A stretch of DNA of 64,000 nucleotides from Bacilli bacterium (lineage in GTDB: Bacteria; Bacillota_I; Bacilli_A; RFN20; DUOF01), in contig JBGVCT010000016.1 of assembly GCA_045118975.1 (NCBI GenBank), positions 28,199 to 92,198 on the forward strand, written 5' to 3'. The notes below the pieces were generated by a model. The model had not been told where the DNA came from and ran no database searches. It saw nothing but the letters and a program-made list of their open reading frames with translations. The position numbers and the translations under genes were made by a program. This document shows positions 1 through 63,816 of this stretch, in pieces; positions within the stretch are counted from its first letter, which is position 1; every line of letters begins with the position of its first letter.

Positions 1-1808
1 TTTCTGCCCTAACAAGTGCAATATATAGTGCTAGACAATTAATTGTTCACTATTCAGATTACAAATCATTTGATGATTTAGAAACTATTTCTAAGAACAT
101 TTTAGAAAAGTTTAATAAGGCATATCCAGCAGAAAAGGCTTATTTTGATAAACTATTAAAATTCCAAAATACAGGCGAACATAATGTTGTCATTAAAAAG
201 AGTAGTGATGTAGTATATGATGAATTCACTAAATCTTATTTGTTTAAAAAAGGTGATATTTCCATTTCAGTAAGTGCAAGTAAAGTTACTGTTATTAAAG
301 ATTTTAAAAAGAGAAAAGATTTAGCTTATATTGTTAATTGTGATAGCAATATGAATTATTTCTATGTAAATCCTGATTATGAAATGGAATATGTACAACT
401 AAAGGCGCCAAAAGAGTTACAAGATTTCTTTGTTAAGAACTTTAAGCCTCTTGCTATTGATTATTTAGGACACAAAGAGATGGCTAGAGATATACTTGAA
501 CATTTCTTTTCTGGAAGTTATAGCACAATTAAAACGCGTAATGTGCCTGGGAAAAATGAAAAAGAATTTTATACAGATACAAGTAAACTTTTAAGCGATT
601 TCTTTGATGAGGGTGTTGTTTATAAAGAGTTTTTAAATGGAAGATCATATATCAATAGAGGGGCTCCTGAAATTAGATATGATGACTATAGCGCTATTAA
701 AAATCAGGTTAGCGAATCATTGCTTGCTAATGTTTCAGAAAGAGATTTCTTCTTTATTAGAAAGAGTGAGGCAATGCTTAATGATATTGAAGATAGTATA
801 AGAAAATATGGACCATCTTTAGATTCAGAATTGCTTTCTAAAATGAAAATTTCTATGCTTATTAATTTTGTCGATCAAAGTGTAAAGAATTTATCTAATT
901 CGTTTATTCATGCACATCCTGATTTTGAAAAACTATATATAAGATTATTGGATTATAGAAATTTCTTTGCTCATAATATTTATCAATTAAAACCAGATTT
1001 GGGGACTAGAATTCTTGATGAGTTTATGGATGTATCTAAAGGATTTGTAGGAATTATATCTTCATTAAACATTGAAAAAATAACTAAACCTTTAGAAAAA
1101 GAAGAGAAAAGTTTCTTGGCTTTAGAAAAAGATCCTAAAAACTTTATAAACTTCAAATATGAACAATTTATTAGAGTGGATCCAGTAACCTATATTGGAG
1201 ATAAATTATATTACTCTACTAGAGGTAGTGAATATGAAAGGGTTATTGGTTTAATTCCTACTGATAAGCATGGAGATTATAGAGCTGCTTATTATGAAAA
1301 AAAAGAAGATACTTTTGTTGCTAAGACAATAAAAGGACAAGGTGGCAAAAAGAAAAAAGTATTTGTGACTCAAACAAATCTTTCAACTGGTGAAGATTTG
1401 ATGATGGATACTAATATAAGAGATTTATTATATATTAATGCGGCATATGCTCACAAATGTGGGGAACCAGAAGTATTAAAGAATCTTAGAAAAACTAGTA
1501 AGAAAATTATTGTATTTAGACCAAGTGAAGATAATAATTTCACAACTCACGCGGCTAGTTTAAATCATCTTATTTCTAACTATTATCAACAAAGATATTT
1601 GCCATATGAACTTGCAAGAAGAACACAAATTAACTTTGCATTAACAGAAAATAATGAAGGATATTTTGAAATTTTAGATTTAGATGGTAATGTTATAGCT
1701 GAAGTTGTTGATGAAAAATTATTTAGAAAATATGAGATGAAAAAAGATAGTAATCAAGTATTTACAGTTAGTACTATCCCATATGATTTTTCTAAGAAAA
1801 GAGGGTAA
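1..1808 (+). CDS. hypothetical protein, 5'-partial. The reading frame is open from base 3, so the track's TTG start at 240 is probably internal.
   Basis: The frame of ORF 240..1808 has no stop codon back to the window start. No recognisable catalytic motifs. Confidence 0.5.
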   Translation, partial: SALTSAIYSARQLIVHYSDYKSFDDLETISKNILEKFNKAYPAEKAYFDKLLKFQNTGEHNVVIKKSSDVVYDEFTKSYLFKKGDISISVSASKVTVIKDFKKRKDLAYIVNCDSNMNYFYVNPDYEMEYVQLKAPKELQDFFVKNFKPLAIDYLGHKEMARDILEHFFSGSYSTIKTRNVPGKNEKEFYTDTSKLLSDFFDEGVVYKEFLNGRSYINRGAPEIRYDDYSAIKNQVSESLLANVSERDFFFIRKSEAMLNDIEDSIRKYGPSLDSELLSKMKISMLINFVDQSVKNLSNSFIHAHPDFEKLYIRLLDYRNFFAHNIYQLKPDLGTRILDEFMDVSKGFVGIISSLNIEKITKPLEKEEKSFLALEKDPKNFINFKYEQFIRVDPVTYIGDKLYYSTRGSEYERVIGLIPTDKHGDYRAAYYEKKEDTFVAKTIKGQGGKKKKVFVTQTNLSTGEDLMMDTNIRDLLYINAAYAHKCGEPEVLKNLRKTSKKIIVFRPSEDNNFTTHAASLNHLISNYYQQRYLPYELARRTQINFALTENNEGYFEILDLDGNVIAEVVDEKLFRKYEMKKDSNQVFTVSTIPYDFSKKRG

Positions 1809-1811
1809 TGT

Positions 1812-2054
1812 ATGAATAAAACATTAATATCGCTATTAAAAATATATAACATCAATAAGGTTCTTGTTAGAAATGATGATATGGTTGATATTGTTATTTT
1901 AAATAGAGACAGAGTATTAAGTTTAAATGACTGGATCAATTTAAATATTGGGCTTAAATTAATGTATGGCAAGGAAGTTAATTATTTAAGTAAACAAGAT
2001 GCTATGTATATTTATAAGGATTTATCTTCATTTGAGGAGGTAAGTTATGAGTAG
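1812..2054 (+). CDS. hypothetical small protein (80 aa)
   Basis: ATG preceded by AGAGGG RBS. Stop overlaps the next gene start (translational coupling). Confidence 0.4.
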   Translation: MNKTLISLLKIYNINKVLVRNDDMVDIVILNRDRVLSLNDWINLNIGLKLMYGKEVNYLSKQDAMYIYKDLSSFEEVSYE

Positions 2055-2376
2055 TATTGTTAATTTATATGTATATATGAATGCTAGCAATGAACTAGTG
2101 AAAAAGCTTGATAAAGTGAGTATTGATGAGTTTGTTAAAAGTGAAGATATGATTAGTGCGTATTTAGCTATATTTAAGGATCTAGTTAAGTATTTATTAT
2201 CATTAGAAGATATGTTTAATATTGCAGATGAACTTACAACTTTGAAAAAAGAAATATATGAAATAGATTCATTTGTAATGAATTCATATAAGATGGTAAA
2301 TGCTAATATGTTATATGATTTCTTCATGTTGGATTATAGAAGATTATTTAAAATAGTTAGTGAACTTGTAAAATAA
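2047..2376 (+). CDS. hypothetical small protein (109 aa)
   Basis: Strong GAGGAGG RBS 7 nt upstream of ATG. Followed by a rho-independent terminator. Confidence 0.45.
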   Translation: MSSIVNLYVYMNASNELVKKLDKVSIDEFVKSEDMISAYLAIFKDLVKYLLSLEDMFNIADELTTLKKEIYEIDSFVMNSYKMVNANMLYDFFMLDYRRLFKIVSELVK

Positions 2377-2398
2377 GGGGATATATCCCCTTTTTTTC
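2377..2398 (+). terminator. rho-independent terminator
   Basis: GGGGATATATCCCC hairpin followed by T7 directly after the stop codon. Confidence 0.7.
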
Positions 2399-2438
2399 AT
2401 ATATTTATTTTTAAATCATAAACTTAATTGGTGATATT

Positions 2439-2645
2439 ATGTTTGAATATAGTAATAATGTTTTGATCATTAGTGGCTTTAAAGATATTAAATATATTGA
2501 TGATAATAAAATAGAGGTTGTTTATGCTCGTAAAAGGATTATTGTTTTGGGAAAAATGTTAAAAGCAAGTAATCTTCTTGATTGTAGTCTAGAGCTAAGA
2601 GGGATTATAGAGAGCATTAATCAGGAGTATTTTGATAATGATTAG
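2439..2645 (+). CDS. yqfC: YqfC/YabP-family sporulation protein (68 aa)
   Basis: Small beta-rich protein with the YabP/YqfC-like pattern (ISGFKDIKYIDDNKIEV...LELRGII). Located upstream of ybeY as in Bacillus. Confidence 0.45.
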   Translation: MFEYSNNVLIISGFKDIKYIDDNKIEVVYARKRIIVLGKMLKASNLLDCSLELRGIIESINQEYFDND

Positions 2646-3555
2646 TTATGATATCTATTTATTTCATTATTCTTCATTATCTACACTTTTAAAAGTTATG
2701 AATTATTTTAATATTCCAGTTAAAAAATATTATGAATATGGCAAAGATTATTATCTTAAAATACCAAGAAAATATAGAAGATTAGTAAAAGATAAATTTG
2801 TGGAAGTTCATATTGTAGATGGTGTGGGAGTTATTAATTTTATAGAGAGATTAATGCTTAAACCTATAACTCTTGTTTCTTTAATTTTGTCTATTTTTTT
2901 ATTTATGAATTTATCATCAAGACTATATGATATAAGTTTTAATGGGGATTATCCTTATATTGAAAAGGAAATTGTTAATAGTTTAAAAGAATATGAATTA
3001 TATAAGTGGGGATATTTTGTTGATGAAGAGAAATTAGATGATATTGAGGGGTTATTGAAAGAAAAATATAATAATGATTTAGAATCTTTAGATTTATATA
3101 AAAGGGGAAATAAATTAATTGTTAATTATAAAAAAAGAAGAAAGATAAATGATTTAGAAGAAAATAAAGGGAGTTTATATGCAAGTAAAGATGGGGTTAT
3201 TGCTTCATTTGATGTTATAAAAGGTGTCAAGGTAGTAAAGGTTAATGATTTTGTTAGAAAAGGAGATTTACTTGTTAGTGAGATAGTTATAAATAATAAA
3301 GATGAGGGTGTTAGTGTTGGGGGAAGAGGGAGTGTATATGCTTACACTTACTATTTTATTGAAGTGAATGATACTTATAAAAAAAGCGATGAAGTAGAGG
3401 TATATTCAACGCTTTTAGATAAGGCTAGAAAAGAGGTTTCTAAAAATATCAATAGTGATAGAGAGTATATAAAAGAGGAAAATGTTTTAGTGTGTGATTT
3501 AAGCAACCAATATTTAAAAATTTATTATGTTTTATATGAAGATATTACAATTTAG
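2632..3555 (+). CDS. yqfD: YqfD-like stage IV sporulation protein (307 aa) with a central TM helix
   Basis: Overlaps the yqfC-like stop. Hydrophobic helix LKPITLVSLILSIFLFMNL. Synteny with yqfC-yqfD of Bacillus. Confidence 0.4.
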   Translation: MIMISYDIYLFHYSSLSTLLKVMNYFNIPVKKYYEYGKDYYLKIPRKYRRLVKDKFVEVHIVDGVGVINFIERLMLKPITLVSLILSIFLFMNLSSRLYDISFNGDYPYIEKEIVNSLKEYELYKWGYFVDEEKLDDIEGLLKEKYNNDLESLDLYKRGNKLIVNYKKRRKINDLEENKGSLYASKDGVIASFDVIKGVKVVKVNDFVRKGDLLVSEIVINNKDEGVSVGGRGSVYAYTYYFIEVNDTYKKSDEVEVYSTLLDKARKEVSKNINSDREYIKEENVLVCDLSNQYLKIYYVLYEDITI

Positions 3556-4474
3556 AGTAATATCTTTTTATTTTGTTTATAAATGGGAGGGTTATGATAA
3601 CTCCTAGTAAGTTGAATAGGATATTGATTATAGCGATTGATATAGCAGGTGTAGCGTTTGTGATATCTATAACTAGATTTATAAGTGTGGTGAATGGAAA
3701 AATAAAAATAGAAAAAATGATGGTTGTTAAAATATTAAATGTTATTGAAAAGTGAGAGAGTTTTTTTGCTTCTTTATTGCTTGAAAAGAAGGTTATTAGG
3801 GCATCAAAACTTGTGCCAATATTTGCTCCAAATATTAAAGGTATTGCCTGAATTGGGGTAATTATAGATGAGGTGGCAAATATTTGTAAAAGTGCTACAA
3901 ATAGGCTAGAAGATTGTAAGGCTATAGTTATAAGTGTTCCTATTAAAATACTTAAAAAGAAGTTATCTGTGGCGCGTTTTATATAAAGTGGAATAATTGG
4001 GCTATCTTTTAATGAAATTAAAGAAAAAGAGATTAAAAACACAGAAAAAAATAGTAATGAAACATAGAAAGTTGTTTTTGAAATATTAGCTATTTTGGGG
4101 TTTTTTGAATTAGAAAAGATAAATGATATAAGAAGGAAAAAAGGAGATATTTTTTCTAAGTTAAGACCAATAAAAAAAGAGGATATAGTGGTGGCAATAT
4201 TACTTCCAAGAACTATTCCTATACTTTGATTAAATGATAGAATATTTGAATTTATTAAAGTTATGGTAAGCATAATAAGTGCTGAACTGGATTGAATAAT
4301 TAATGTAGAAAAGAATCCTGTAAATAGGGATTTTTGAAAAGATGAAGTCAACTTTTTTAGGCTGTTTTGTATTTTAAAAAGAGAAGATTTTATAAGGCTT
4401 TTTGATAAGGATTCTAAAGAAAATACAAATAAGGATAGACCACCAAGTAATAGAGTAATATTCACATGTTTCAC
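3545..4474 (-). CDS. Na/Pi-cotransporter family membrane protein (short form, 309 aa)
   Basis: Polytopic membrane protein with a GANIGTSFDA motif like the GANIGTT signature of the Na_Pi_cotrans family. The PhoU-like C-terminal domain of full-length NptA is absent. Confidence 0.5.
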   Translation of the reverse strand: MKHVNITLLLGGLSLFVFSLESLSKSLIKSSLFKIQNSLKKLTSSFQKSLFTGFFSTLIIQSSSALIMLTITLINSNILSFNQSIGIVLGSNIATTISSFFIGLNLEKISPFFLLISFIFSNSKNPKIANISKTTFYVSLLFFSVFLISFSLISLKDSPIIPLYIKRATDNFFLSILIGTLITIALQSSSLFVALLQIFATSSIITPIQAIPLIFGANIGTSFDALITFFSSNKEAKKLSHFSITFNILTTIIFSIFIFPFTTLINLVIDITNATPAISIAIINILFNLLGVIITLPFINKIKRYYSKL

Positions 4475-4539
4475 CAGTTAATTATACTTATTAAGGGATT
4501 TTTTTAGACTAATAGTAATGGTATTTTAGAGGTGATATT

Positions 4540-4911
4540 ATGATTAATTTTTATTATTTGATTAATTTCTTAGAATGTGGGCACTTTTGTATTAAATATT
4601 ATTTGAAAAAGGATAAGAAAAAAGTGAAGAATGTTTATGATAAAACAATGATGTCGCTTAGGCTTGTGAGGAATGTTTTGAAGGAATACTATGGGGATGT
4701 TATTTGGTATAAAAATGTGAATCTAGATGAAGTGAATTTTAGGTGTATAAGTTTAATTAAAGTTGGTAAAAAGGGGCTTCATTATGTGGTTATTGAAAAG
4801 GTAAGAGATGGCTATGTTTATTTTTATGATCCTCTGTTTATCTTTTTAAGAAAGATGAAAAAGGAAAGGTTTAAGGAAAAATGGAGTAATTTAGTGTGTA
4901 AATGTTATTAA
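4540..4911 (+). CDS. stand-alone papain-like peptidase C39-like domain protein (123 aa)
   Basis: Cys in LECGHFCIKYYL and His in HYVVIEKVRDGYVYFYDP resemble the catalytic Cys/His context of C39 bacteriocin-processing peptidases. Confidence 0.35.
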   Translation: MINFYYLINFLECGHFCIKYYLKKDKKKVKNVYDKTMMSLRLVRNVLKEYYGDVIWYKNVNLDEVNFRCISLIKVGKKGLHYVVIEKVRDGYVYFYDPLFIFLRKMKKERFKEKWSNLVCKCY

Positions 4912-4938
4912 AAATAGTAATTGTTAACATAGTTAACA

Positions 4939-4966
4939 TTTACATATTTTTCTTGTGTGGTATAAT
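4939..4966 (+). promoter_or_regulatory. sigma-A type promoter for ybeY
   Basis: -35 TTTACA at 4939-4944, 16-nt spacer, then extended -10 TGG-TATAAT at 4958-4966. Two GTTAAC palindromes lie just upstream at 4922-4938. Confidence 0.4.
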
Positions 4967-4983
4967 ATCATTGGGTGTTTGTC

Positions 4984-5460
4984 ATGAATAAAATTGATAT
5001 TATTAACAAAGTTAAAGGATTAGATATAAAAGGTTATCGTAAAGATTTCAAAGAAATCTTAAAGGAAACTATTCGAGTTTTGGAAATAGAAAATGATGTT
5101 TCACTTAGTTTGACTATTTGTCTTAGTGATTATATTCATGGGTTAAACAAAGAATATAGAAATATAGATAGAGAAACAGATGTCTTATCATTTGCAATTG
5201 AAGATGGTATGGATGAGGATGATATTTTGGATATGATTGATTTTGCAGGAGTTAGAGAAATTGGCGATATCATAATCAATCTTGATAGAGTGAAGTCTCA
5301 AGCTAGTGAGTATGGTCATAGCGAGAGAAGGGAAATGTGTTTTTTATTCACTCATGGGTTATTACATCTTTTAGGCTATGATCACATGGAAAAAGAAGAT
5401 GAAGAAGAAATGTTTGGGTTACAAAATGTTATTTTAGGTAATCTTGAGATAAATAGATAG
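4984..5460 (+). CDS. ybeY: rRNA maturation endoribonuclease YbeY
   Basis: HGLLHLLGYDH zinc-binding signature. The start may be GTG at 4975 or ATG at 4984. Confidence 0.85.
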   Translation: MNKIDIINKVKGLDIKGYRKDFKEILKETIRVLEIENDVSLSLTICLSDYIHGLNKEYRNIDRETDVLSFAIEDGMDEDDILDMIDFAGVREIGDIIINLDRVKSQASEYGHSERREMCFLFTHGLLHLLGYDHMEKEDEEEMFGLQNVILGNLEINR

Positions 5461-5470
5461 GAGAATTGAA

Positions 5471-5881
5471 ATGAAGCAAGAATTAAAAGAAAAAATGTTA
5501 AGAGAAGCAGTTTTAGTTAAAGTTAATTCATATTCGCCATATTCTAAATTTAGAGTAGGAGCTTGCGTTGCTACTAAGAGTGGAGAATTAATTTGTGGAG
5601 TAAATGTTGAATCTGCTTCTTATCCATGCGGGATATGTGCTGAAAGAAGTGCTCTTAGTGCGGCATATTCAAAAGGATATAAAAAAGATGATATAGTTGC
5701 TATTGCAATAAGTGGAGATAGTAAAGAGTTTATTAGTCCATGTGGGATGTGTAGACAAGTTATAAGTGAACTTATGCCATCTAATGCAACTGTTTATCTT
5801 TTGAATTCTAAGCAAGAAGTAAAAGAGGTAAAGGTAAAACAATTATTGCCATTTGCTTTTACTCTAAAGGAGGATAAATAA
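5471..5881 (+). CDS. cdd: cytidine deaminase
   Basis: PCGICAERSAL and PCGMCRQ zinc-ligand motifs (CAE / PCxxC). 136 aa. Confidence 0.85.
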   Translation: MKQELKEKMLREAVLVKVNSYSPYSKFRVGACVATKSGELICGVNVESASYPCGICAERSALSAAYSKGYKKDDIVAIAISGDSKEFISPCGMCRQVISELMPSNATVYLLNSKQEVKEVKVKQLLPFAFTLKEDK

Positions 5882-6768
5882 TGTTTAAGTCAGGATTTGT
5901 TGCAATCGTTGGAAAACCTAATGCAGGCAAATCTACTTTAATGAATAACATTATTAAGCATAAAATTGCTATTACCTCACCTAAGGCACAGACAACTAGA
6001 AATAAGATTGAAGGAATTTACAATGATGAGAGAATGCAAGTAATATTTATCGATACTCCAGGTATTCATAAAAGTACTACTAAGTTAGGTGTTGAGTTAA
6101 ACAAAATGGCATTTTCTTCGACTAGAGATGTAGAGCTTACACTTCTTATTGTAGATGCTTCAAAAAGATGTGATGAGTTAGATGATAAGGTTTTAGAAAA
6201 ACTTAAAACTGTTAAATCACCAATTGTCCTAGTTTTAAATAAGATAGATGTGCTTAATAAAGAACAACTTATAAAGAAAACATTAGAGTGGAATAAGAAG
6301 GGGGATTTTGCTGCCATTGTTCCAATTAGTGCTTTGAAGAGTGATAATGTTGAAGAATTAAAAAATGTTATTTATGAATATTTGCCTGAGGGACCAATGT
6401 ATTATGATAGCGATGCAATCTGCTCTTATCCAGAAAGGTTCCTAGTTAGTGAATTAATAAGAGAGAAGATTTTATTCTTTACTCAAGAAGAAATTCCTCA
6501 TTCAGTTGCTGTTGTAACTGATTCGATGAAGAAAAAGGGAGACACTTATATAGTTAATGCTACTATTATTGTTGATAGAGATTCTAAAAAAGGAATCATT
6601 ATTGGAAAAGGCGGAAGCATGCTTAAAAAGATAGGTGTTGCTGCAAGAGCTACAATTGAAGATTTATTGGGATATAAAATTTATTTAGAATTATTTGTTC
6701 GTGTTGAAAAGGATTGGAAGAATTCTAATAGATATCTTAAAGAATTTGGATATAAAAATGAGGATTAA
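5881..6768 (+). CDS. era: GTPase Era
   Basis: GKPNAGKSTLMN P-loop, DTPG, NKID motifs and a C-terminal KH domain. Typical cdd-era-recO order. Confidence 0.9.
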   Translation: MFKSGFVAIVGKPNAGKSTLMNNIIKHKIAITSPKAQTTRNKIEGIYNDERMQVIFIDTPGIHKSTTKLGVELNKMAFSSTRDVELTLLIVDASKRCDELDDKVLEKLKTVKSPIVLVLNKIDVLNKEQLIKKTLEWNKKGDFAAIVPISALKSDNVEELKNVIYEYLPEGPMYYDSDAICSYPERFLVSELIREKILFFTQEEIPHSVAVVTDSMKKKGDTYIVNATIIVDRDSKKGIIIGKGGSMLKKIGVAARATIEDLLGYKIYLELFVRVEKDWKNSNRYLKEFGYKNED

Positions 6769-6771
6769 GAT

Positions 6772-7491
6772 ATGAAGAATAAGTTTTGTGGATATGTTAT
6801 AGATAGTGTGGATTATAAAGATAATGATTCAATTGTTACTATTTTGTGTGAAGATGGTCTTGTTTCTTTAAAGGCAAGAGGGGCAAAGAAGATAACTTCA
6901 AAGATGAATTCAGTGTTATTTAATTATGCATATAGTGAATTTGAAGTTAATAAGAGTGAAAAGAGTGGGTATCTTACTCTTTTGGATGGTACTTTACTTA
7001 ATTATCCTAACTTTGTAATTAATAGTTTAGATTATTTAACTATTATGGGAATTGTTAGTGAGGGAATTAATAAATGTAAAGACAATGAAAATCTATATAC
7101 TTCATTTAAAGATTGTTTGTCTTTAATGGAAAATGGAGTAAATAGTAAGGTTCTTATAGTGGCATTTTTAAACTTTATGTTAGAGAGTGAAGGTGCTAAG
7201 TATGAGGGAGATAAGTGTGTATCTTGTTTAGATAAAAAAGTTAGTTCTTTCTCATTTGAGATGGGTGGCTTTTTGTGTAATAAGTGTAGTCATATTAGTG
7301 AAGATGTTTCTTATTTAAAAACAATGAGAATATTAACTAAGATTAATTTAAAAAATGCTTTAAAAATAACTGAAACTAATGCAAATTATGATATTTATAT
7401 TGGACATGCATTTGAGTCATTAGAAAATAAGTGTGGTATATATTTTAAAGGAAAAGATTTTTTACTTAAAGTACTAAAAATGGAGGGTTAA
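6772..7491 (+). CDS. recO: DNA repair protein RecO
   Basis: Position after era. CxxC...CxxC zinc-finger pairs in the C-terminal half. Typical length of 239 aa. Confidence 0.7.
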
Positions 7492-7493
7492 AG

Positions 7494-8867
7494 ATGAGTG
7501 AATATAGTTTTGAAAAAGTAGTAAATCATGTAAAGGTTAGTGGATTTGTATATCCAGGTAGTGAGATTTATAATGGTCTTGCTAATGCTTGGGATTATGG
7601 ACCTTTAGGAGTTGAATTAAAGAACAATTTAAAGAAGTTATGGTGGAAGAAATTTGTACAAGAAAATCCTTATAATGTTGGTTTGGATAGTGCTATTTTA
7701 ATGAATCCAACAGTTTGGAAAGCTAGTGGACACCTTGCAACATTTAGCGATCCACTTATGGATTGTAAAAATTGTAAAACTAGACATAGAGCAGATAAGT
7801 TAGTTGAAGAGCATGATAGTAGTGTAAATGCTGGAGAAATGTCTGATGAAGATTTATTCAATTACATTAAAGACAATAAGATTGCTTGTCCTAATTGTGG
7901 TAGTCATGATTTTAGTGATATTCGTAAGTTTAATCTTATGTATAAGACATACCAAGGTGTATTAGAGGATGCAAAAAGTGTTGTTTATTTAAGACCTGAA
8001 ACAGCACAAGGTATCTTTGTTAACTTTAAAAATATTCAAAGAACAACTAGAAAGAAACTTCCTTTTGGTGTTGCTCAAATTGGTAAGAGTTTTAGAAATG
8101 AGATTACTCCTGGTAACTTCATTTTCAGAATTAGAGAGTTTGAACAAATGGAATTAGAATTCTTTTGCAAACCTGGTGAAGATTTGAAATGGTATGCTTA
8201 TTGGAAAGACTATTGTTTCAATTTTGTTAAGGCGCTAGGAGTAAAAGAAGAGAACTTAAGATTAAGAGAGCACTCTCCAGAAGAATTATGTTTCTATTCT
8301 AAGGGAACTTGTGATATTGAATATAAATTCCCATTTGGTTGGGGTGAGTTATGGGGTATTGCAGATAGAACAGATTATGACTTAACTCAACATACAAAGT
8401 TTAGTGGAACTAATTTAGATTATATTGATCCTAGTGATAATTCTAGATTTACTCCATATTGTGTAGAACCTAGTTTAGGTGCTGATAGATTGGCTCTTCT
8501 TGTTATGTGTGAAGCATATAGCGAAGAAGTGGTAAATGAAAATGATACTAGAATAGTTATGCATCTTCATCCAAATATTGCTCCATATAAGGCATGTATT
8601 TGTCCTTTAAGCAAGCAATTAAGCGATAAGGCTATGGAAGTATATAGTTTACTTGCTAAAGATTTCATGGTTGAATACGATGATGCAGGAAGTATTGGAA
8701 AAAGATATAGAAGACAAGATGCTATTGGAACTCCAATGTGTATCACTATCGATTTTGAAACTGAAAATGATGGTTCTGTAACTATTAGAGATAGAGATAC
8801 TATGGAACAAGTAAGAGTTAAAATAGAGGATTTAAAAGCTTATATTGAAGAAAAAATTAGATTATAA
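7494..8867 (+). CDS. glyQS: glycine--tRNA ligase (single-chain alpha2 type)
   Basis: Class II aaRS motifs ([31 protein letters not shown]). 457 aa, typical of dimeric GlyRS. Confidence 0.85.
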
Positions 8868-21428: not shown

Positions 21429-21505
<77 letters not shown>

Positions 21506-21525
21506 TTAAATTTGTAAATGTATTT

Positions 21526-21601
21526 GCCAAGTTAGCTCAGTCGGTAGAGCAATCGGCTGTTAACCGATCGGTCGTAGGTTCGAGTCCTATACTTGGCGCC
21601 A
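21526..21601 (+). tRNA. tRNA-Asn (anticodon GTT)
   Basis: Acceptor GCCAAGT/ACTTGGC, anticodon loop CTGTTAA, T-loop GGTTCGAGTCC, CCA end. Confidence 0.85.
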
Positions 21602-21606
21602 CTATT

Positions 21607-21683
21607 GGCCTTTTGGAGAAGCGGCTTAACTCACATCCCTTTCACGGATGCATTCACGGGTTCGAATCCCGTAAAGGTCACCA
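21607..21683 (+). tRNA. tRNA-Glu (anticodon TTC)
   Basis: Closely resembles Firmicutes tRNA-Glu (GGCC..TGG..AAGCGG..CCCTTTCACGG..CACGGGTTCGAATCCCGT..GGTCACCA). Confidence 0.85.
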
Positions 21684-21691
21684 TATTTAGT

Positions 21692-21767
<76 letters not shown>

Positions 21768-21777
21768 TTTTATTTAA

Positions 21778-21860
21778 GGGGCTATGGCGGAACTGGTAGA
21801 CGCGCCAGACTTAGAATCTGGTGAGAGATCGTGGGAGTTCGAGTCTCCCTAGCCCCACCA
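21778..21860 (+). tRNA. tRNA-Leu (anticodon TAG), class II with long variable arm. Its 3' end is the integration site of the island.
   Basis: Acceptor GGGGCTA/TAGCCCC, anticodon stem-loop CCAGA-CTTAGAA-TCTGG, extra arm, T-loop GGAGTTCGAGTCTCCC, CCA. Confidence 0.85.
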
Positions 21861-48054: not shown

Positions 48055-48654
48055 ATGAAGGAAGACTTAAAATGTAATGGTTGCGGTGGTCAACTTGCTA
48101 AAATAGAAAATGAAGAGAATACTTATGTGTGTTTACATTGTGGTAATAAGATGGTTATTGCTGAAGATGTAAATAATAATAACTATAATGTTACTAATCA
48201 TGTTACAAATCATATCTATGGAAACGTTGTTTCTGAAGCAGATGATAGGGACAAGGTAGATTTAATGGCTAATGTTGAAGCTATGATTAAAATGGAAGAA
48301 TATCAAAAAGCATATAAAATGTTACTTTCAGTCTCTGAAAAAGAGCCAGGGAATACAATCGTATGGTGGTTGCTTTCTAAAACTGCTATGTCTGCTGCTA
48401 TTAGACAATTTAGAAGAGGAGAAACAAGCAATCACACTTATACAAGAGATTATAAACGTCACTATGAGAAATATTGCTTATTAGCAGGTGATAAAAAAGA
48501 TCCTAATATAGAAAAAGAATACAAAGAATTAGAAGAAACTTTATTGAAATATCTTAATAGAGAAATAAAATATAGCTCAACGGCTTTAAAAATTATGTTA
48601 GGCATTATTGTAGTAGCGGTGGTTGCTGCAATAGGTATATCATTGATTTTTTAA
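48055..48654 (+). CDS. zinc-ribbon protein with C-terminal TM tail anchor
   Basis: CNGCGG...CLHCGN zinc ribbon. Terminal helix LKIMLGIIVVAVVAAIGISLIF. Confidence 0.4.
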   Translation: MKEDLKCNGCGGQLAKIENEENTYVCLHCGNKMVIAEDVNNNNYNVTNHVTNHIYGNVVSEADDRDKVDLMANVEAMIKMEEYQKAYKMLLSVSEKEPGNTIVWWLLSKTAMSAAIRQFRRGETSNHTYTRDYKRHYEKYCLLAGDKKDPNIEKEYKELEETLLKYLNREIKYSSTALKIMLGIIVVAVVAAIGISLIF

Positions 48655-48950
48655 GATTTATTATAATTGATTTTAGGCATTATCTTTTTATAAAAAAGAT
48701 AGTGCTTTTTATTTTTTGTTGGATTTTCCTTAAAGTGCACTAAAAGCTCATTTTGTTGACAAATTTACTCTAAATTGGTATTCTCTTCCTTGCGCGGCAA
48801 TAAAAAAAGGTAAAAGTTGAGCTTTTTACCTAATAAAAAAGGAGTAACTATTTATAAAGATTTATATTAAATGATTAATTAAATTATTTAAAACTTGTAT
48901 GTAGTGATAGGGGAGTATTACTTATTACAAGTTATAAAGGGGAAAAATTT

Positions 48951-50555
48951 ATGAAAAATTACGAAGAAGAATTAGAAACGCTAATTAGAGCGGGCGCTAA
49001 GGTTGTAGAAATTGCATCTTTTGAGTGGGAAAGGGTGCATGGATTTACTAACTATGTAAGTGAGATATTAGGAATTGCTTGGTATTCATGGAGTAGTGTT
49101 TCAGGGCTTAGAATTTGGGAACAAGGAAAGTTAAAAGTTATTAATCCTGATTGTACTACCCTAGCGGCTGTATTGGAATATTATTTAAATAATGAAAGTG
49201 ATATGCTACTTGTATTAGAGGATTTTCATCCATATAGTGAGGTGGGATATCCAGTAAATGTAAGATATATAAGAGAAATGATGAGACCACAAAATTATTC
49301 TGGTAGCTATAAAAAAGCTATTATTTTAAGTGCGCCTAGTAAGTTTGTACCAGAAGAGTTATCTAAAGAATTACCGGTTATTGAGGTTGAATTACCTGAT
49401 AGAAGTATTATTGAGGTAATTGCTCATACTGTTGTAGAAGAGTATAGTGATTATTGTATTGAGAGTGAGATAACTCCTAAACTTTTAGAGTCTGCTCTTG
49501 GTCTTACTGTAATGGAGGCAAGATTAGCATTTGCTAAAGCTATTATTACAAATAGAAAATTAACTGATGAGGAGATCCCTTTAATAATTAGCGAAAAAGA
49601 GCAAATTATTAAAAAGAGTGGTCTTTTAGAGTATTTCCATCCAAAAGAATATTTAACTAATGTTGGTGGTTTAGAAAATTTAAAGGATTGGATAAGAAAA
49701 AGAGGTAATGCATATAGTGATGATGCTAGGGCTTATGGATTAAATACTCCTAGAGGTGTATTACTGCTTGGAGTTCCTGGTTGTGGTAAGTCATTAACTG
49801 CTAAAGCAATAGCAAATGAGTGGCAATTTCCTCTTTTGAGATTTGATTTGGGCAAGGTGTTCAGTGGATTTGTTGGTGAGTCGGAAAGAAATATAAGATA
49901 TGCTCTAGATGTTGCTAAAACTATTTCGCCATGTGTTTTATGGATAGATGAAATTGAAAAGGGTTTAAGTGGGACTCAAAGTAGTGGTAAGGCTGATGGT
50001 GGTACTAGTGCTAGAGTATTTGGAACTTTATTAACTTGGATGCAAGAAAAAGAGGATCCTGTATTTGTAGTGGCTACTGCCAATGATATAAGTTCATTGC
50101 CGCCAGAGTTACTAAGAAAAGGAAGATTTGATGAAATCTTTTTTGTTGATTTACCTACTGCAATGGAAAGAGAAAATATTTTTAGGATACATTTAGAAAA
50201 TAAAAATAGAGACATCAAAACTTTAAAATTGGATATTAATAAATTAGTGAAAAATACAGAGGGATTCTCTGGTGCTGAGATTGAAGAAGTTATAAATGAA
50301 GCATTATTTAATGCTTATGCAAATGGTCAAGATGATTTAAAAATGGAAAATTTAATGGAGTGTATATATACTACCTCTCCCTTATCAAAAACAATGGCAG
50401 AGACTATTTCTAATTTGAGAAAATGGGCTAAAGAGAGAGCTAGACTTGCAAGTGATGGTATTCCAGAGAAAGTAATGGATTTAGGAGTAGATGTACCAAG
50501 ATTGCATCAAGAGTGTAAGAATCCATTTGTTAAGAGGGAAGATTATGATAAATAG
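48951..50555 (+). CDS. AAA+ ATPase (classic AAA clade) with ~250-aa N-terminal domain of unknown function
   Basis: Walker A GVPGCGKSL, Walker B VLWIDEIE, second region of homology TANDISSLPPELLRKGRFDE. Confidence 0.75.
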   Translation: MKNYEEELETLIRAGAKVVEIASFEWERVHGFTNYVSEILGIAWYSWSSVSGLRIWEQGKLKVINPDCTTLAAVLEYYLNNESDMLLVLEDFHPYSEVGYPVNVRYIREMMRPQNYSGSYKKAIILSAPSKFVPEELSKELPVIEVELPDRSIIEVIAHTVVEEYSDYCIESEITPKLLESALGLTVMEARLAFAKAIITNRKLTDEEIPLIISEKEQIIKKSGLLEYFHPKEYLTNVGGLENLKDWIRKRGNAYSDDARAYGLNTPRGVLLLGVPGCGKSLTAKAIANEWQFPLLRFDLGKVFSGFVGESERNIRYALDVAKTISPCVLWIDEIEKGLSGTQSSGKADGGTSARVFGTLLTWMQEKEDPVFVVATANDISSLPPELLRKGRFDEIFFVDLPTAMERENIFRIHLENKNRDIKTLKLDINKLVKNTEGFSGAEIEEVINEALFNAYANGQDDLKMENLMECIYTTSPLSKTMAETISNLRKWAKERARLASDGIPEKVMDLGVDVPRLHQECKNPFVKREDYDK

Positions 50556-52389
50556 TAAGGTTATAAAGGTTATAAAAGAGAATTCCTTTAATCAAGGGTG
50601 GACACTTTTTGATAAGTGGGAATTTTCAGTGAGTAAAAATCATTTATTTCAAGAATATTCACTTGCTTCATTAATTGAACTTATAAATGGTGCTAGTGTT
50701 ATTAATCTTATATTGAAAGAAGCTTGTTTAGATGAAAATTTAGTTATAGCGTTAAATAGAGTTAGTCTAAATGTCAAAGTGAATGTGATATCTAGAAATG
50801 AAGAAATTGTTTCTACATATCCTGATTTAAAAATAGATAACTTAAGGATTGATGATAATTTAGATTTCAATTACATTGGAGTTATTGGTAAAGAAAATAA
50901 AAATTTTATATTATTTGATAAGTATGTAGAAACTAATGATTTGATTAATAAGATATATTTTAATCATGAAGATATAAAAGAAGATTATTCTTTTTTTACT
51001 CAGGTGGCTAGGCTTATTATTGTGGATAAAAAAGGCGAAAGAGATTATTCACAATTAATTATGGAGGCAAATAAGGAAAAGATAGAGTGTATATATGTTG
51101 TAGATCCTAAATACTACAATAAAGATATCTTTTATTATGCTTTAACAAATAAACTGGATTTAGTATTAGCGGATGTTTTAAAAGAGGGAATAATACTTCA
51201 AAATAAGAATGCTACATTATCTTGTTTAATAAAGACAAATAGTGGTAAATATACTACTTATCCTCTAGATGCTATGGACTCTTTTGTTAGAAATACTTAC
51301 AAATGTTTATTTTGTGATGATAATGCTAATATTGATAATATGCTTGATAGAGTATATTGTGTATCTAATGGAACAATTGAAAATTTTAGTTTGACGGATA
51401 CAAAGGTTGTTTTTTGTGATGTTAAATTGAATTCAATTAGTGATTTTGTAAGTGAGAATTTTGATGATTCAATAAGTGAGGAACATAATAATTACTCTAA
51501 TAAGGCATATAAGGTGGAATATCAATTTAATCTTATTCCTCCAACATTTGATAATACTTATAGTTTATCTAGTATTTATGATGAAGTGCATGAGTTAAAA
51601 AAAGAATGGGATGAAGTACAAACTCTTAAAGTGGATGAAATTAAAAGAGATTATGATGAAATCATGGAAGAGGATGTAGGTTTAATTGAGTTTATTGATA
51701 GTGGTGTCAAATTTGATGAAACATTAACAGGCATTATTGATGAGTGTAGGTATGAGGGATATTATAAATTAGTTAATAATGCTAAAGCTTTATTTGAAAA
51801 CTATAAGCGTTCATTACTTGTTAGATGTAAGGACATGTTTAATGCTGTTAATAAAGAAAACTTGAATTCTAAGTTTGATAAATTTGATGAAGAAATTGAA
51901 GGATATAAAAATACTATTCAAGAGAAAAGAACCCTTATATTAGAAGGGATAGATGTAAATAGTAATAAAAGAAGTGTAGAGATATTAGAAAAGAAAGTGT
52001 CAGATTTATTAAGACTTAAAGCTAGCTTTGAAAGTAAGGCTAATACTATAAGAGATGATAAAGGGTTAGAAGTGTTTTTGGACAAGTGTAATGAAATTAT
52101 CAATAATGATAAGCAAATACAATCTATTTCAGATATTGTCAAAACAAAAGAGATTTCTAAAATGGCTAAGTTAAAGGCATTTATAGATAGTTATTTGTAT
52201 TCAATAAATGCCTATATTGTAAATTGTCTTAATATTATAGATAGATTAAGAGATTTACATCTTCCTGAAAATTATCCTGTATATGAAAAGAATGGTGAAA
52301 GATATATTGTTATTGATGATTTATATGAATATTATGACACTAAATGTTTGAGGGAAGAGTTTAACTTGAAGTGTATAGCAAGGAGATAG
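50545..52389 (+). CDS. hypothetical protein (614 aa), translationally coupled to the AAA+ ATPase
   Basis: ATG at 50545 with AGAGGGAAG RBS, overlapping the upstream stop by 11 nt. No recognisable motif. No glycyl-radical signature. Confidence 0.4.
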   Translation: MINSKVIKVIKENSFNQGWTLFDKWEFSVSKNHLFQEYSLASLIELINGASVINLILKEACLDENLVIALNRVSLNVKVNVISRNEEIVSTYPDLKIDNLRIDDNLDFNYIGVIGKENKNFILFDKYVETNDLINKIYFNHEDIKEDYSFFTQVARLIIVDKKGERDYSQLIMEANKEKIECIYVVDPKYYNKDIFYYALTNKLDLVLADVLKEGIILQNKNATLSCLIKTNSGKYTTYPLDAMDSFVRNTYKCLFCDDNANIDNMLDRVYCVSNGTIENFSLTDTKVVFCDVKLNSISDFVSENFDDSISEEHNNYSNKAYKVEYQFNLIPPTFDNTYSLSSIYDEVHELKKEWDEVQTLKVDEIKRDYDEIMEEDVGLIEFIDSGVKFDETLTGIIDECRYEGYYKLVNNAKALFENYKRSLLVRCKDMFNAVNKENLNSKFDKFDEEIEGYKNTIQEKRTLILEGIDVNSNKRSVEILEKKVSDLLRLKASFESKANTIRDDKGLEVFLDKCNEIINNDKQIQSISDIVKTKEISKMAKLKAFIDSYLYSINAYIVNCLNIIDRLRDLHLPENYPVYEKNGERYIVIDDLYEYYDTKCLREEFNLKCIARR

Positions 52390-52392
52390 TTT

Positions 52393-53133
52393 ATGAGTTG
52401 TGAGATTAGTGTGAAATCATTTAATCCTTTAGAGATTAAGGTAGATGGTTTTACTAGAGATGATGTTATTAATTTAGAAGGGGCAATTATATGTGCCCTA
52501 AATCAAAAATTAGATAGATTAAGTGTTTTAACAAGAGGGTGTAATGTTTATTCTAGTGATGGTAATATTTTAATTAATGATGCCTATAATACTTCTTCTT
52601 GTCTACTTTCTTTATTAGAGACTTTAGGGTTCGATGTAAGAGAGATAGAGTGTGAGTTAAAAGGAAAAAATTATATAGTAAGTGATAAGCTTCTTTCTAG
52701 TTTAAGAAGTTTTGGCAACGATTATAAATTTAACCATAAGATTATAAATTGCGCTCTAACTCCTAGTGTTAAAGAAATTATTTCAAATAATAAGTTTAAT
52801 GTTGATTTGGATCTTAGAGTTTTAGATATGATTTTGAATATCAAGCAAAATGGATGTTATATGGAACTTGCTAAGCAAGAAATTATAACAGATTATAAGG
52901 ATAATAAGTTTGTTAGTGAACTAAGGGGAGATATTATATCTTCTTCATTGAGTATAAATGAAGATTTATCTAACATTTTTAATGGGGTAAAGGAAAATTT
53001 AGTTAAGACTAATGAAATATTAAAAAACGCTACTGCTAGTATAATTGCCTATAGAGCTAAGCAAATGGGATACTCTATAAAAGAAGTTAGAAATGGTAAT
53101 AAGATAGAGTTAGAACTTGTGAGGTGTGAATAA
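52393..53133 (+). CDS. hypothetical protein (246 aa)
   Basis: Tightly packed in the same operon. Confidence 0.4.
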   Translation: MSCEISVKSFNPLEIKVDGFTRDDVINLEGAIICALNQKLDRLSVLTRGCNVYSSDGNILINDAYNTSSCLLSLLETLGFDVREIECELKGKNYIVSDKLLSSLRSFGNDYKFNHKIINCALTPSVKEIISNNKFNVDLDLRVLDMILNIKQNGCYMELAKQEIITDYKDNKFVSELRGDIISSSLSINEDLSNIFNGVKENLVKTNEILKNATASIIAYRAKQMGYSIKEVRNGNKIELELVRCE

Positions 53134-53336
53134 TGGGAGAAAAGAAAATTCTTATTAGTATAGATGAAAATGGTAATTGTGATGCTGAAACTTTTGGAAT
53201 ATATGGTAGCGAGTGTATAAGTGAGTTAGATAAGCTTTTAAAGGAATTATCACTACAAACTAAAACTAATAAAAAAGATGATTTTTATAAGGAAACAAAG
53301 CTTATTAATAATGGTGTAAGGATTAATAATCAATGA
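53133..53336 (+). CDS. hypothetical small protein (67 aa)
   Basis: Start overlaps the upstream stop. Stop overlaps the next start. Confidence 0.3.
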   Translation: MGEKKILISIDENGNCDAETFGIYGSECISELDKLLKELSLQTKTNKKDDFYKETKLINNGVRINNQ

Positions 53337-53902
53337 TTGGGATATATAAAATAAAGATAGTAAATAATGAGCATTTATATGGTAAGGGAAAGAGATTATT
53401 AATATTTTTAAAAGGGTGCTCTATTCATTGCAAGGGATGTATAAACAAACATCTTTGGTCATTTGAGGATGCAATATTTATGGATGAAAAAGAAATAGTT
53501 GCTCTTGCTATTAAAGAAAATGTAGAGGGTATTACTTTGCATGGGGGAGAACCTCTTGATCAGGCTAAATCTTTATATAATCTTGTTAAAATGGTTAAGG
53601 ATAACAAAATGAGTGTTATTTTATTTACTGGATATAAAAAGTTAGAGTTAGATAAAATACAAAAAAAGATTTGGGATATTTCAGATATTGTTATCTCTGG
53701 AAGATTTGTAATGAGTAAAAGAAATGTTTCTTTACAATTTAGGGGAAGTAGTAATCAAAGAGTGTATGTTCATAAGGGAATATATAAAGGGTATAGAATA
53801 AAAGATGATAAGACGGTTACTTTATTAACTTTAGATGAAAAAGGAAATTTAGATATTAATGGTTTTATAACTGGTGATATTTTGAAGATAATTGGTAATT
53901 AA
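53333..53902 (+). CDS. NrdG-like radical-SAM glycyl-radical-enzyme activase
   Basis: LLIFLKGCSIHCKGCINKHLW (Cx3Cx2C), GGEP, and RGSSNQRV, the hallmark of anaerobic RNR activase NrdG. No nrdD nearby. Confidence 0.7.
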   Translation: MIGIYKIKIVNNEHLYGKGKRLLIFLKGCSIHCKGCINKHLWSFEDAIFMDEKEIVALAIKENVEGITLHGGEPLDQAKSLYNLVKMVKDNKMSVILFTGYKKLELDKIQKKIWDISDIVISGRFVMSKRNVSLQFRGSSNQRVYVHKGIYKGYRIKDDKTVTLLTLDEKGNLDINGFITGDILKIIGN

Positions 53903-63498: not shown

Positions 63499-63816
63499 TT
63501 GACACCCTTTTTTTACCATGTTAAAGTAAAAGTGCGTAGATGAGGACAAGTACCTTAATAAACTTGTACTAGTGAGTCAGGTATAGTGGAAACTGATTAC
63601 AAGAGTTTTGGGAAAGAACACCTCGGAGCTAACTAAGGAAAAGAGAAATCTTAGTAGACTAGTTCGGAAGCAAACCGTTATCACATTGCTATGCTTGATA
63701 GAGCAAAAAGGGATTACTAAAGAAAGAAAAACACATAGATGTTTAGTAATAATTAAGGTGGCACCGCGGATACCCGTATTCGTCCTTATTGTAGGGATGA
63801 TTACGGGTATTTTTAT
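63499..63816 (+). promoter_or_regulatory. T-box riboswitch leader (promoter, stem I, T-box sequence, intrinsic terminator)
   Basis: -35 TTGACA at 63499. GCGTAGATGAGG K-turn-like start. Conserved T-box AATTAAGGTGGCACCGCGG at 63751-63769. Terminator ACCCGTA...TACGGGT plus T5 at 63771-63816. Confidence 0.6.

Follow-up and report, generated by a model that had tools for sequence, protein, structure and literature searches.

Glycyl-radical activases are not known to act outside partnerships with large catalytic glycyl-radical enzymes. To our knowledge, the one established radical S-adenosylmethionine (radical-SAM) anti-phage effector is the prokaryotic viperin (pVip), a nucleotide-modifying enzyme that is encoded by a single gene and measures about 280 amino acids (aa). 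For decades, ycf35 (encoding DUF1257), the gene for DUF2997 and that for an associated AAA ATPase have persisted as conserved 'hypothetical' genes of cyanobacteria and plastids. Here we describe a five-gene module, genes A to E, in a 64,000-nt stretch of a Bacilli bacterium contig (the window; about 28% G+C), whose closest named relatives are uncultured 'Bacilli bacterium' metagenome-assembled genomes. The module joins an activase-type radical-SAM protein to a classical AAA+ ATPase, a DUF2997-family protein and two private proteins. In its architecture it appears to be new, and we infer its function below. The literature search found no paper describing it.

Five coupled genes kept in one order

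The module occupies positions 48951-53902 of the plus strand as five translationally coupled genes (Table 1), as seen from the listing of open reading frames (ORFs) and from direct reading of the junctions. An earlier reading of the sequence alone (the sequence-only reading) had placed five coupled ORFs here, with start/stop overlaps at 50545/50555, 53133 and 53333, and both the ORFs and the overlaps were borne out. Genes A and B overlap by 11 nt, the gene A stop codon (TAG, 50553-50555) lying beyond the gene B ATG at 50545, upstream of which stands AGAGGGAAG. Genes B and C are separated by a 3-nt gap, with AAGGAGA preceding the gene C ATG at 52393. Genes C and D share one nucleotide within TAATG (53131-53135), and genes D and E overlap by 4 nt within ATGA (53333-53336). 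A purine-rich ribosome-binding site is found at each of the junctions.

For comparison we assembled the window and 22 related loci, drawn from the neighbourhoods of gene C and gene E homologues, a scan of 185,579 species genomes and the IMG/VR database. The five genes stand in identical order in the window and in all 22 related loci, wherever a locus is long enough to show it. Because the same genes recur in the same order in all of them, the arrangement is not due to chance, and the neighbourhood conservation that the sequence-only reading had proposed to check is now in evidence. The hosts are metagenome-assembled genomes of Bacilli, Clostridia, Christensenella, Anaerotignum and Caccovivens. 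The module was found in only 8 of the 185,579 species genomes, and one variant is recorded in 288 blocks of an assembly index.

The five genes evolve at different rates. Over 18 non-identical loci, gene A has a mean pairwise identity of 86% (minimum 78%; 85% for its N-terminal domain), followed by gene E (59%), gene D (54.5%), gene C (42%) and gene B (37%).

The radical-SAM protein forms a subfamily apart from NrdG

Gene E encodes a radical-SAM protein that matches Fer4_12 at 3e-34 and phrog_626 ('anaerobic RNR small subunit', ribonucleotide reductase) at 3.8e-33. Its best NCBIfam match is the NrdG model TIGR02491, at 110.6 bits, under the cut-off of 126.1; PRK11121 scores 83.7 against a cut-off of 199. 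The NrdG hallmarks that the sequence-only reading had recognised are present in the translation: C29-x3-C33-x2-C36 (GCSIHCKGC), HGGEP and RGSSNQRV. In a 35-sequence alignment of the gene E family, the elements CX3CX2C, GGE(P) and RGSxNQ are invariant. The xGxGxR substrate loop is also retained, as YGKGKR in gene E and as YGPGKR in the family. The only solved homologue found is the pyruvate formate-lyase activating enzyme (PFL-AE, 3c8f), with a profile match of 1.8e-9 over residues 16-145. Gene E is without a SPASM/twitch domain and without a RiPP-recognition domain (RiPP, ribosomally synthesized and post-translationally modified peptide).

As a separate observation, the substrate loop of the window copy departs from that of its relatives. 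Gene E has YGKGKR at residues 14-19, a place where 33 of the 34 relatives in the alignment show YGPGKR or something close to it; the proline is nearly invariant among them, and the substitution falls in the putative substrate-binding loop.

These matches could in principle come from an ordinary nrdG gene that lies beside unrelated genes and whose product activates an NrdD from another place in the genome, since NrdG models are the best family matches of gene E and all NrdG sequence hallmarks are present. We consider this explanation largely refuted and highly improbable. Besides the sub-threshold TIGR02491 score, gene E belongs to a group with a C-terminal extension. In the species-genome scan, eight loci were at least 51% identical to gene E over residues 1-187. 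The next matches were at most 41% identical, ended at residue 144-170 and were canonical NrdGs such as that of Streptococcus. Because these next-best relatives stop there, the C-terminal tail of about 45 aa (about residues 145-189) is specific to the subfamily. Sequence clusters gave 402 matches at E ≤ 1e-10, and at least the best 120 of these are all subfamily members, at least 52% identical and mostly 183-203 aa long. The subfamily was found solely inside the five-gene module: its linkage to genes A-D is strict across all 23 loci, and on mobile elements it moves in their company.

The distribution of NrdD argues in the same direction. With four NrdD queries taken from canonical nrdG loci, tblastn found NrdD in none of the 23 module loci, the whole 64-kb window included. 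Of 72 canonical nrdG genes, by contrast, 68 had NrdD no more than 10 kb away. The NrdD proteins of the canonical loci end in RTCGYLG or RRITGY. Genes A-D gave no Gly_radical or NRDD match in Pfam, for the 246-aa gene C protein even at E ≤ 10. Gene E thus appears to be not a stray nrdG but a member of a discrete subfamily of about 190 aa, and the module, as judged from these comparisons, seems to have nothing to do with ribonucleotide reduction. The suggestion of an orphan NrdG-like activase in a new radical-SAM system is supported by this discrete subfamily, its constant place in the module and the absence of NrdD from all 23 loci. The case put forward against that suggestion, a translocated nrdG next to genes conserved independently of it, fails on the linkage to genes A-D in all loci and on the same NrdD count.

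A DUF2997-family protein precedes the radical-SAM protein

Gene D matches PF11211 (DUF2997) with an E-value of 7.5e-4 and 19.8 bits, under the gathering score of 24.1. Its orthologues in homologous loci have precomputed DUF2997 matches, that of one Clostridia-type locus (L095) at E ≤ 1e-5. BLASTP links gene D to a PGAP-annotated DUF2997 protein at 4e-4, and when six PGAP-annotated DUF2997 proteins are aligned with it over the full length, G-x-x-C and KKPE[FY] are shared. Its conserved motifs are G-x-x-C, universal in the alignment, and KKxE[FY][FY], and conservation extends over the whole length, as in a folded domain. We conclude that gene D encodes a DUF2997-family protein. The sequence-only reading had seen no recognisable motifs in the 614-, 246- and 67-aa proteins; this needs revision for the 67-aa protein, which is DUF2997-like, and for the N-terminal third of the 614-aa protein, which is PLD-like in a low-confidence model (see below).

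A small ORF directly upstream of a radical-SAM gene and translationally coupled to it, with a conserved Gly-x-x-Cys, also fits a RiPP-like pathway in which gene D is a precursor modified by gene E and the ATPase and large proteins serve in processing or export. Such a pathway is very unlikely here. At 189 aa, gene E is of the activase type and has neither of the domains named above; gene D is conserved throughout and DUF2997 occurs without a radical-SAM protein in cyanobacteria; and the module contains no protease or transporter.

The gene E tail resembles the N-terminal hairpin of DUF2997 at residues 165-175. The idea that the tail is such a hairpin is consistent in placement, but the matches are individually non-significant, and we keep it as a lead only. 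Separately, a 23-nt direct repeat, 83% identical between its copies, is translated as IDENGNCD in gene D and as LDEKGNLD in the gene E tail. It parallels the protein-level likeness of the two hairpins and could be a chance occurrence in AT-rich DNA.

A Cdc48-like ATPase and two fast-evolving proteins

Gene A encodes a classical AAA protein (PF00004, 8.7e-33; AAA_lid_3, 1.5e-10). A family-specific N-terminal domain (about residues 1-250) comes first, then a Cdc48-D2-like AAA module (residues 270-400) and, at residues 427-470, the lid. Walker A (GVPGCGKS), Walker B (VLWIDEIE), the pore loop GFVG (GFVGESE) and the arginine fingers (RKGRFD) are intact, in agreement with the sequence-only reading of a classic-clade AAA ATPase with an N-domain of about 250 aa. 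Among solved structures the D2 domains of p97/Cdc48 match it best, down to 4e-61, and it scores far under the cut-offs of the PAN, FtsH, CDC48 and IteA models. No solved relative of the N-domain was found. Gene A matches phrog_8638 at 2.7e-142. Mycobacteriophage cluster 'AAA-ATPase' genes are 37% identical to it, 'AAA family ATPase' genes on plasmids are 36-49% identical over their full length, N-domain included, and cyanobacterial plasmid ATPases reach 41%. The N-domain defines an ATPase family.

Gene B has no family match in Pfam, PADLOC, NCBIfam or PHROGs, and a word-indexed search returned six homologues. In its AlphaFold 2 (AF2) model the mean predicted local distance difference test score (pLDDT) is 50; values of 75-88 are reached over residues 40-110 and 150-220, and values of 65-88 only within about residues 40-250. 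That segment is modelled, with low confidence, as a tandem PLD-like fold, and Foldseek aligned the model with PPK1, PLD, PLD3, Zucchini, NucT and Tdp1 (E 2.7e-6 to 1e-2). The HKD motif (HxK(x)4D) was not found: residues 40-250 contain no conserved His or Lys in a 14-sequence alignment. A conserved block, DFxxExFDxSxxxxHNxY…YxFxLxPP, lies at about 300-333, followed by a long helical region (about 344-570) and a conserved C-terminus ending …L.C.ARR. A profile search of the PDB with gene B found nothing. A metal site at C254/C257/C272 was considered and rejected; these cysteines are invariant among close relatives but not conserved in the wider family.

Gene C belongs to a small private family, with 79 clusters among 1.84 billion representatives, and no Pfam match was found at E ≤ 10 when 9 and then 38 members were scanned. 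Its AF2 model (pLDDT 86) has two β-β-α-β-β units, for which no fold match was found in the PDB or BFVD. Across 38 sequences, which reach down to 17% identity, invariance is confined to M1, A222, G226 and Y227. The last three lie in a motif near the C-terminus (Table 1), and G226-Y227 is, with low confidence, one candidate site of hydrogen abstraction.

An expanded variant of a wider cassette

Outside the module, the same families recur in simpler loci. On the Paenibacillus polymyxa plasmid pPPM1a the order is AAA, DUF1257, DUF2997 and a '4Fe-4S single cluster domain' protein (a Fer4_12 radical-SAM protein), collinear with A-C-D-E. That radical-SAM protein matches the gene E subfamily profile over positions 14-184, tail included, with 113 bits. 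The same four families occur within a few kb of one another on phage-like plasmids of B. thuringiensis, B. licheniformis and P. urinalis; these Bacillus and Paenibacillus plasmids are 200-260 kb long, and the four families stand there among ThyX and helicase genes. Gene C stands at the place that DUF1257 takes in such cassettes. The window module is an expanded variant of this uncharacterised cassette, with gene B added and gene C in the DUF1257 slot.

Two further settings widen the picture. On pTRESU01 of Treponema succinifaciens (L131), one cassette in a long VgrG/Pvc8-effector array with a polymorphic toxin encloses a divergent AAA–radical-SAM pair whose radical-SAM protein has the same tail; ahead of the pair stand genes for unknown proteins of 621 and 285 aa, neither of them related to gene B or gene C. 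No DUF1257 or DUF2997 was found beside the ATPase in mycobacteriophage Catdawg, Treponema, C. butyricum, Calditerrivibrio or Microcystis, and because these loci lack the adjoining pair, the ATPase family has several partner sets.

On cyanobacterial plasmids, AAA, DUF1257 and DUF2997 occur without a radical-SAM protein. One of them, pPg_01 of Pseudanabaena galeata (L132), carries co-directional genes for GrpE, Hsp70, DUF1257, an ATP-binding protein, DUF2997, AAA and a 734-aa unknown, an arrangement that ties a second chaperone system to DUF1257 and DUF2997. Gene A may resemble Ycf46, the cyanobacterial and plastid AAA ATPase. Ycf46 has been described as a stress-operon AAA ATPase (bioRxiv 10.1101/2025.07.21.665879), and a review lists DUF2997–ycf35–fed7, the last a 4Fe-4S ferredoxin gene, as a conserved cyanobacterial cluster (PMC4284462).

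These relatives raise the possibility that the module is a proteostasis or stress switch, an anaerobe counterpart of the cyanobacterial and plastid AAA/Ycf35 (DUF1257)/DUF2997 set, in which the AAA+ protein would remodel a DUF1257/DUF2997-type assembly and the Fe-S or radical-SAM protein would give redox or radical input. The plasmid-borne ATPases beside DUF1257/DUF2997, once with Hsp70 and GrpE, the fed7 cluster and the housekeeping genes around the window module all favour it. The distribution of the module is extremely sparse and patchy, however (8 of 185,579 species); the module rides on integrative mobilizable elements and in restriction-modification, Abi and toxin neighbourhoods; genes B and C evolve very fast; and some loci have nuclease add-ons. 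We hold this explanation to be unlikely, while the most probable of the rivals.

Mobile carriers and their neighbours

Some Clostridia-type copies ride as cargo on integrative mobilizable elements, where Mob_Pre, MobL, relaxase, NikA, integrase and ParA genes flank them. Other Clostridia-type copies adjoin AbiTii, Fic, a type II restriction-modification pair (RE_AlwI and methyltransferase) and IS66; PemK and a recombinase; a Schlafen-like helicase; HsdR; or ResIII/RE_endonuc, NOV_C and TnsA. In the window and its Bacilli-lineage relatives the five core genes stand alone, on the chromosome, among housekeeping neighbours. No convincing flanking direct repeats that might be insertion scars were found.

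The module might serve not the host but the mobile element or phage on which it rides, through element maintenance, exclusion of rival elements, counter-defence or an action of the highly conserved ATPase that remodels a host factor. This alternative, which we judge improbable and rank second among the rivals, draws on the phage affiliation of the AAA family (phrog_8638; mycobacteriophage genes 37% identical), on the company of the four families on the 200-260-kb phage-like plasmids, where ThyX and helicase genes surround them, on the module being the main cargo of elements with Mob, relaxase and integrase genes, and on the near-invariant N-domain (85%), which suggests a conserved host target. 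Against it, only 1 of 29 radical-SAM matches in an alignment-based IMG/VR scan is a subfamily member, on an 11.7-kb contig (a scan of IMG/VR with a single protein found nothing); the module of the window lineage is chromosomal with no mobility genes nearby; and the fast evolution of genes B and C is no less compatible with a defence sensor.

Accessory genes accompany some of the related loci. Clostridia-type copies carry, directly upstream of gene A, a set that is not in the window: a helix-turn-helix protein (about 80 aa), a protein of about 310 aa, one of about 340-390 aa and one to three paralogues of 104-150 aa, the paralogues sharing an FN3-like domain (…VYW..AA.Y.V.L…VERN..YHSF…VEAEDRNGK). 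In some copies the radical-SAM gene is followed by a DEDDh (RNase T-like) exonuclease, directly, or by a mini RNase III-domain protein; both are possibly nuclease effectors. Two Bacilli-lineage loci (L002 and L011) have, after the module, a 170-186-aa unknown, a 245-aa radical-SAM protein and two dCTP-deaminase-like genes, a conserved set that may be a separate nucleotide-directed system and is absent from the window.

A proposed conflict system and the weight of the evidence

We regard it as an evenly balanced proposition that the module is a new conflict or accessory system in which gene E places a radical on a module-encoded protein and the Cdc48-like unfoldase remodels the resulting complex. 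By its family membership, gene E would reductively cleave SAM and abstract a backbone hydrogen from a protein of the module and not from NrdD. Candidate targets are gene D, with its universal G-x-x-C, and gene C, with its invariant G226-Y227. The gene A unfoldase would bind and remodel the complex through its conserved N-domain, and may recognise a DUF2997-type hairpin that is also carried as the radical-SAM tail. Genes B and C, as their evolutionary rates and context suggest, may be the specificity or effector parts, and the same rates and context are consistent with a module that serves biological conflict in strictly anaerobic gut Firmicutes. The most likely conflict role would be anti-phage or anti-mobile-element defence, or competition between elements. 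Defence is our leading reading, with proteostasis and service to the carrier element as live rivals.

A bolder form of the proposal would make the module the first protein-radical conflict system, with a dedicated activase-type enzyme installing a stable backbone (glycyl) radical on a small protein that is not itself an enzyme, gene D or gene C, and the unfoldase arming, resetting or firing it under anoxia against phages or rival elements. We think this form unlikely.

Several observations weigh against a radical-based conflict system. The canonical RVxG[FYW] glycyl-radical motif was not found in the partner proteins; together with the Pfam searches for a Gly_radical domain, this bears out the sequence-only reading, which had seen no glycine-radical motif in the upstream proteins. 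The likeness of the gene E tail to the DUF2997 hairpin extends over about 11 residues, each E-value is at least 0.02, and shuffled controls also match. In the AF2 model of gene C, G226 sits at a helix-strand junction and not at a hairpin tip. In the Bacillus and Paenibacillus cassettes that include a radical-SAM gene, the DUF1257 proteins do not conserve a corresponding glycine, and for that reason we hold the assignment of the radical site at low confidence. Identification of gene C as DUF1257/Ycf35 was rejected: hhalign, run in local, low-mact and global modes on single sequences and a 5-sequence alignment, gave a probability below 1%, and the two families are linked by gene position and short local motifs alone. 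The cyanobacterial relatives, with Hsp70/GrpE and without the radical-SAM protein, point to proteostasis rather than immunity. The window module is flanked by ApbA, HAD, TetR, DUF1295 and aminotransferase genes, with no known defence gene adjoining. The defence-island argument itself is guilt by association, made without a background control.

The interest of the module lies in an activase-type enzyme that is locked to an unfoldase, a DUF2997 protein and two fast-evolving proteins and that mobile elements carry among gut anaerobes. If the proposal holds, protein radical chemistry would have been recruited for a purpose outside metabolism; were its role one of defence or competition, the module would represent a new biochemical principle in bacterial immunity, peculiar to the gut and other anoxic habitats. 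Through it, ycf35 (DUF1257), DUF2997 and the associated AAA ATPase also become tractable to study. Should the protein-radical reading prove true, the DUF1257/DUF2997/AAA set that is conserved in cyanobacteria, plastids, plasmids and large phages would gain its first biochemical function.

Boundaries of the module and other features

A terminator-like hairpin ends the gene upstream of the module and marks the 5' boundary of the five-gene unit. Downstream of it lies a promoter candidate of the sigma-70 type (Table 1). The sequence-only reading had placed a promoter at TTGACA (48756); the sequence is present together with TATTCT, but the density of such sites equals chance, with 40 found in this AT-rich region against 40.6 expected from shuffles. 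Since promoter-like matches are no denser than in shuffled sequence, the promoter is only plausible. No Rfam element was found in the 5' leader of the module.

The upstream zinc-ribbon gene was considered as part of the module and excluded: it is not conserved in the related loci and the terminator stands between. In one related locus (L001), other small zinc-ribbon genes take its place. Elsewhere in the window, five tRNA genes are clustered mid-window and a T-box leader lies at the right end.

Table 1. Coordinates of the module, of other features of the window and of features in related loci (L numbers).
Feature	Sequence	Positions	Strand	Description
Gene A	window	48951-50555	+	534 aa, AAA+ ATPase
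Gene B	window	50545-52389	+	614 aa from the ATG at 50545; longest ORF begins at 50491
Gene C	window	52393-53133	+	246 aa
Gene D	window	53133-53336	+	67 aa
Gene E	window	53333-53902	+	189 aa, radical-SAM
Codons of R221-A-K-Q-M-G226-Y227, gene C	window	53053-53073	+	motif [RK]A[KR]x[ML]GY, 20 residues from the C-terminus
YGKGKR loop, gene E	window	53372-53389		residues 14-19
Direct repeat, first copy	window	53161-53183		in gene D
Direct repeat, second copy	window	53832-53854		in gene E tail
Upstream gene	window	48055-48654		199-aa protein, N-terminal CxxC…CxxC zinc ribbon, C-terminal transmembrane helix
Terminator-like hairpin	window	48675-48707	+	15-bp stem, then T-run; ends the upstream zinc-ribbon/membrane gene
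Candidate sigma-70-type promoter	window	48756-48784	+	TTGACA, 17-nt spacer, TG, TATTCT; 10 of 12 matches, extended -10
tRNA gene cluster	window	21429-21857		five genes
T-box leader	window	63528-63790		109 bits
GrpE to 734-aa cluster	L132, pPg_01	580-8737		co-directional
AAA–radical-SAM locus	L131, pTRESU01	54536-64068		divergent pair
Set upstream of gene A	L007	1149-4278
Set upstream of gene A	L012	1321-5252
Set upstream of gene A	L095	2415-5606
Set upstream of gene A	L102	2441-5603
Set upstream of gene A	L136-L138
DEDDh exonuclease	L010	6141-7304
DEDDh exonuclease	L017	10579-11667
DEDDh exonuclease	L093	10752-11894
Mini RNase III-domain protein	L012	10573-11073
Mini RNase III-domain protein	L017	11683-12195
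Mini RNase III-domain protein	L137	10573-11070
Set after the module	L002	11625-13916
Set after the module	L011	14590-16939

Comparison with known systems

Like pairs of glycyl-radical enzyme and activase (NrdD–NrdG, PflB–PflA, GrcA), the module has, in gene E, the CX3CX2C motif, GGE and the xGxGxR loop; with NrdG in particular it shares the C-terminal RGSxNQ, and with protein-directed activases in general its small size and its strictly anaerobic hosts. Unlike those pairs, its loci contain no NrdD, no Gly_radical domain and no RVxG[FYW]. Gene E departs from NrdG in its score under the model cut-off, its extra tail of about 45 aa, its mobility and its obligate linkage to a Cdc48-like AAA+ protein, DUF2997 and two private proteins.

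A classical-clade AAA+ protein in an operon, in defence-island-like contexts, also recalls IetAS and the TRIP13/HORMA branch of CBASS. PADLOC matched gene A with its IetA models (2.8e-32) and with TRIP13 (1.9e-6), over the ATPase core only, and the NCBIfam model IteA_antiphage scored 101.8 bits against a cut-off of 510. In contrast to both systems, the module lacks the IetS protease, a HORMA protein and a cyclase, and the N-domain of gene A is unrelated to theirs. Genes B, C and D have no PADLOC model, and the searches of PADLOC, PHROGs and NCBIfam gave one weak PHROG match for them.

With the pVips the module shares a radical-SAM enzyme in a putative conflict system. The PADLOC pVip model gave gene E 23 bits over residues 26-122 only, the generic radical-SAM core, and the NCBIfam model viperin_w_prok gave 20.7 against a cut-off of 180. 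Unlike pVip, gene E is of the activase type and would be expected to act on a protein.

The closest likeness is to the AAA–DUF1257–DUF2997 cassette, with or without its radical-SAM gene: the ATPase family, DUF2997, the tailed radical-SAM subfamily and the gene order of pPPM1a are the same. The module differs from that cassette in adding the 614-aa gene and in holding a private 246-aa protein in the position of DUF1257.

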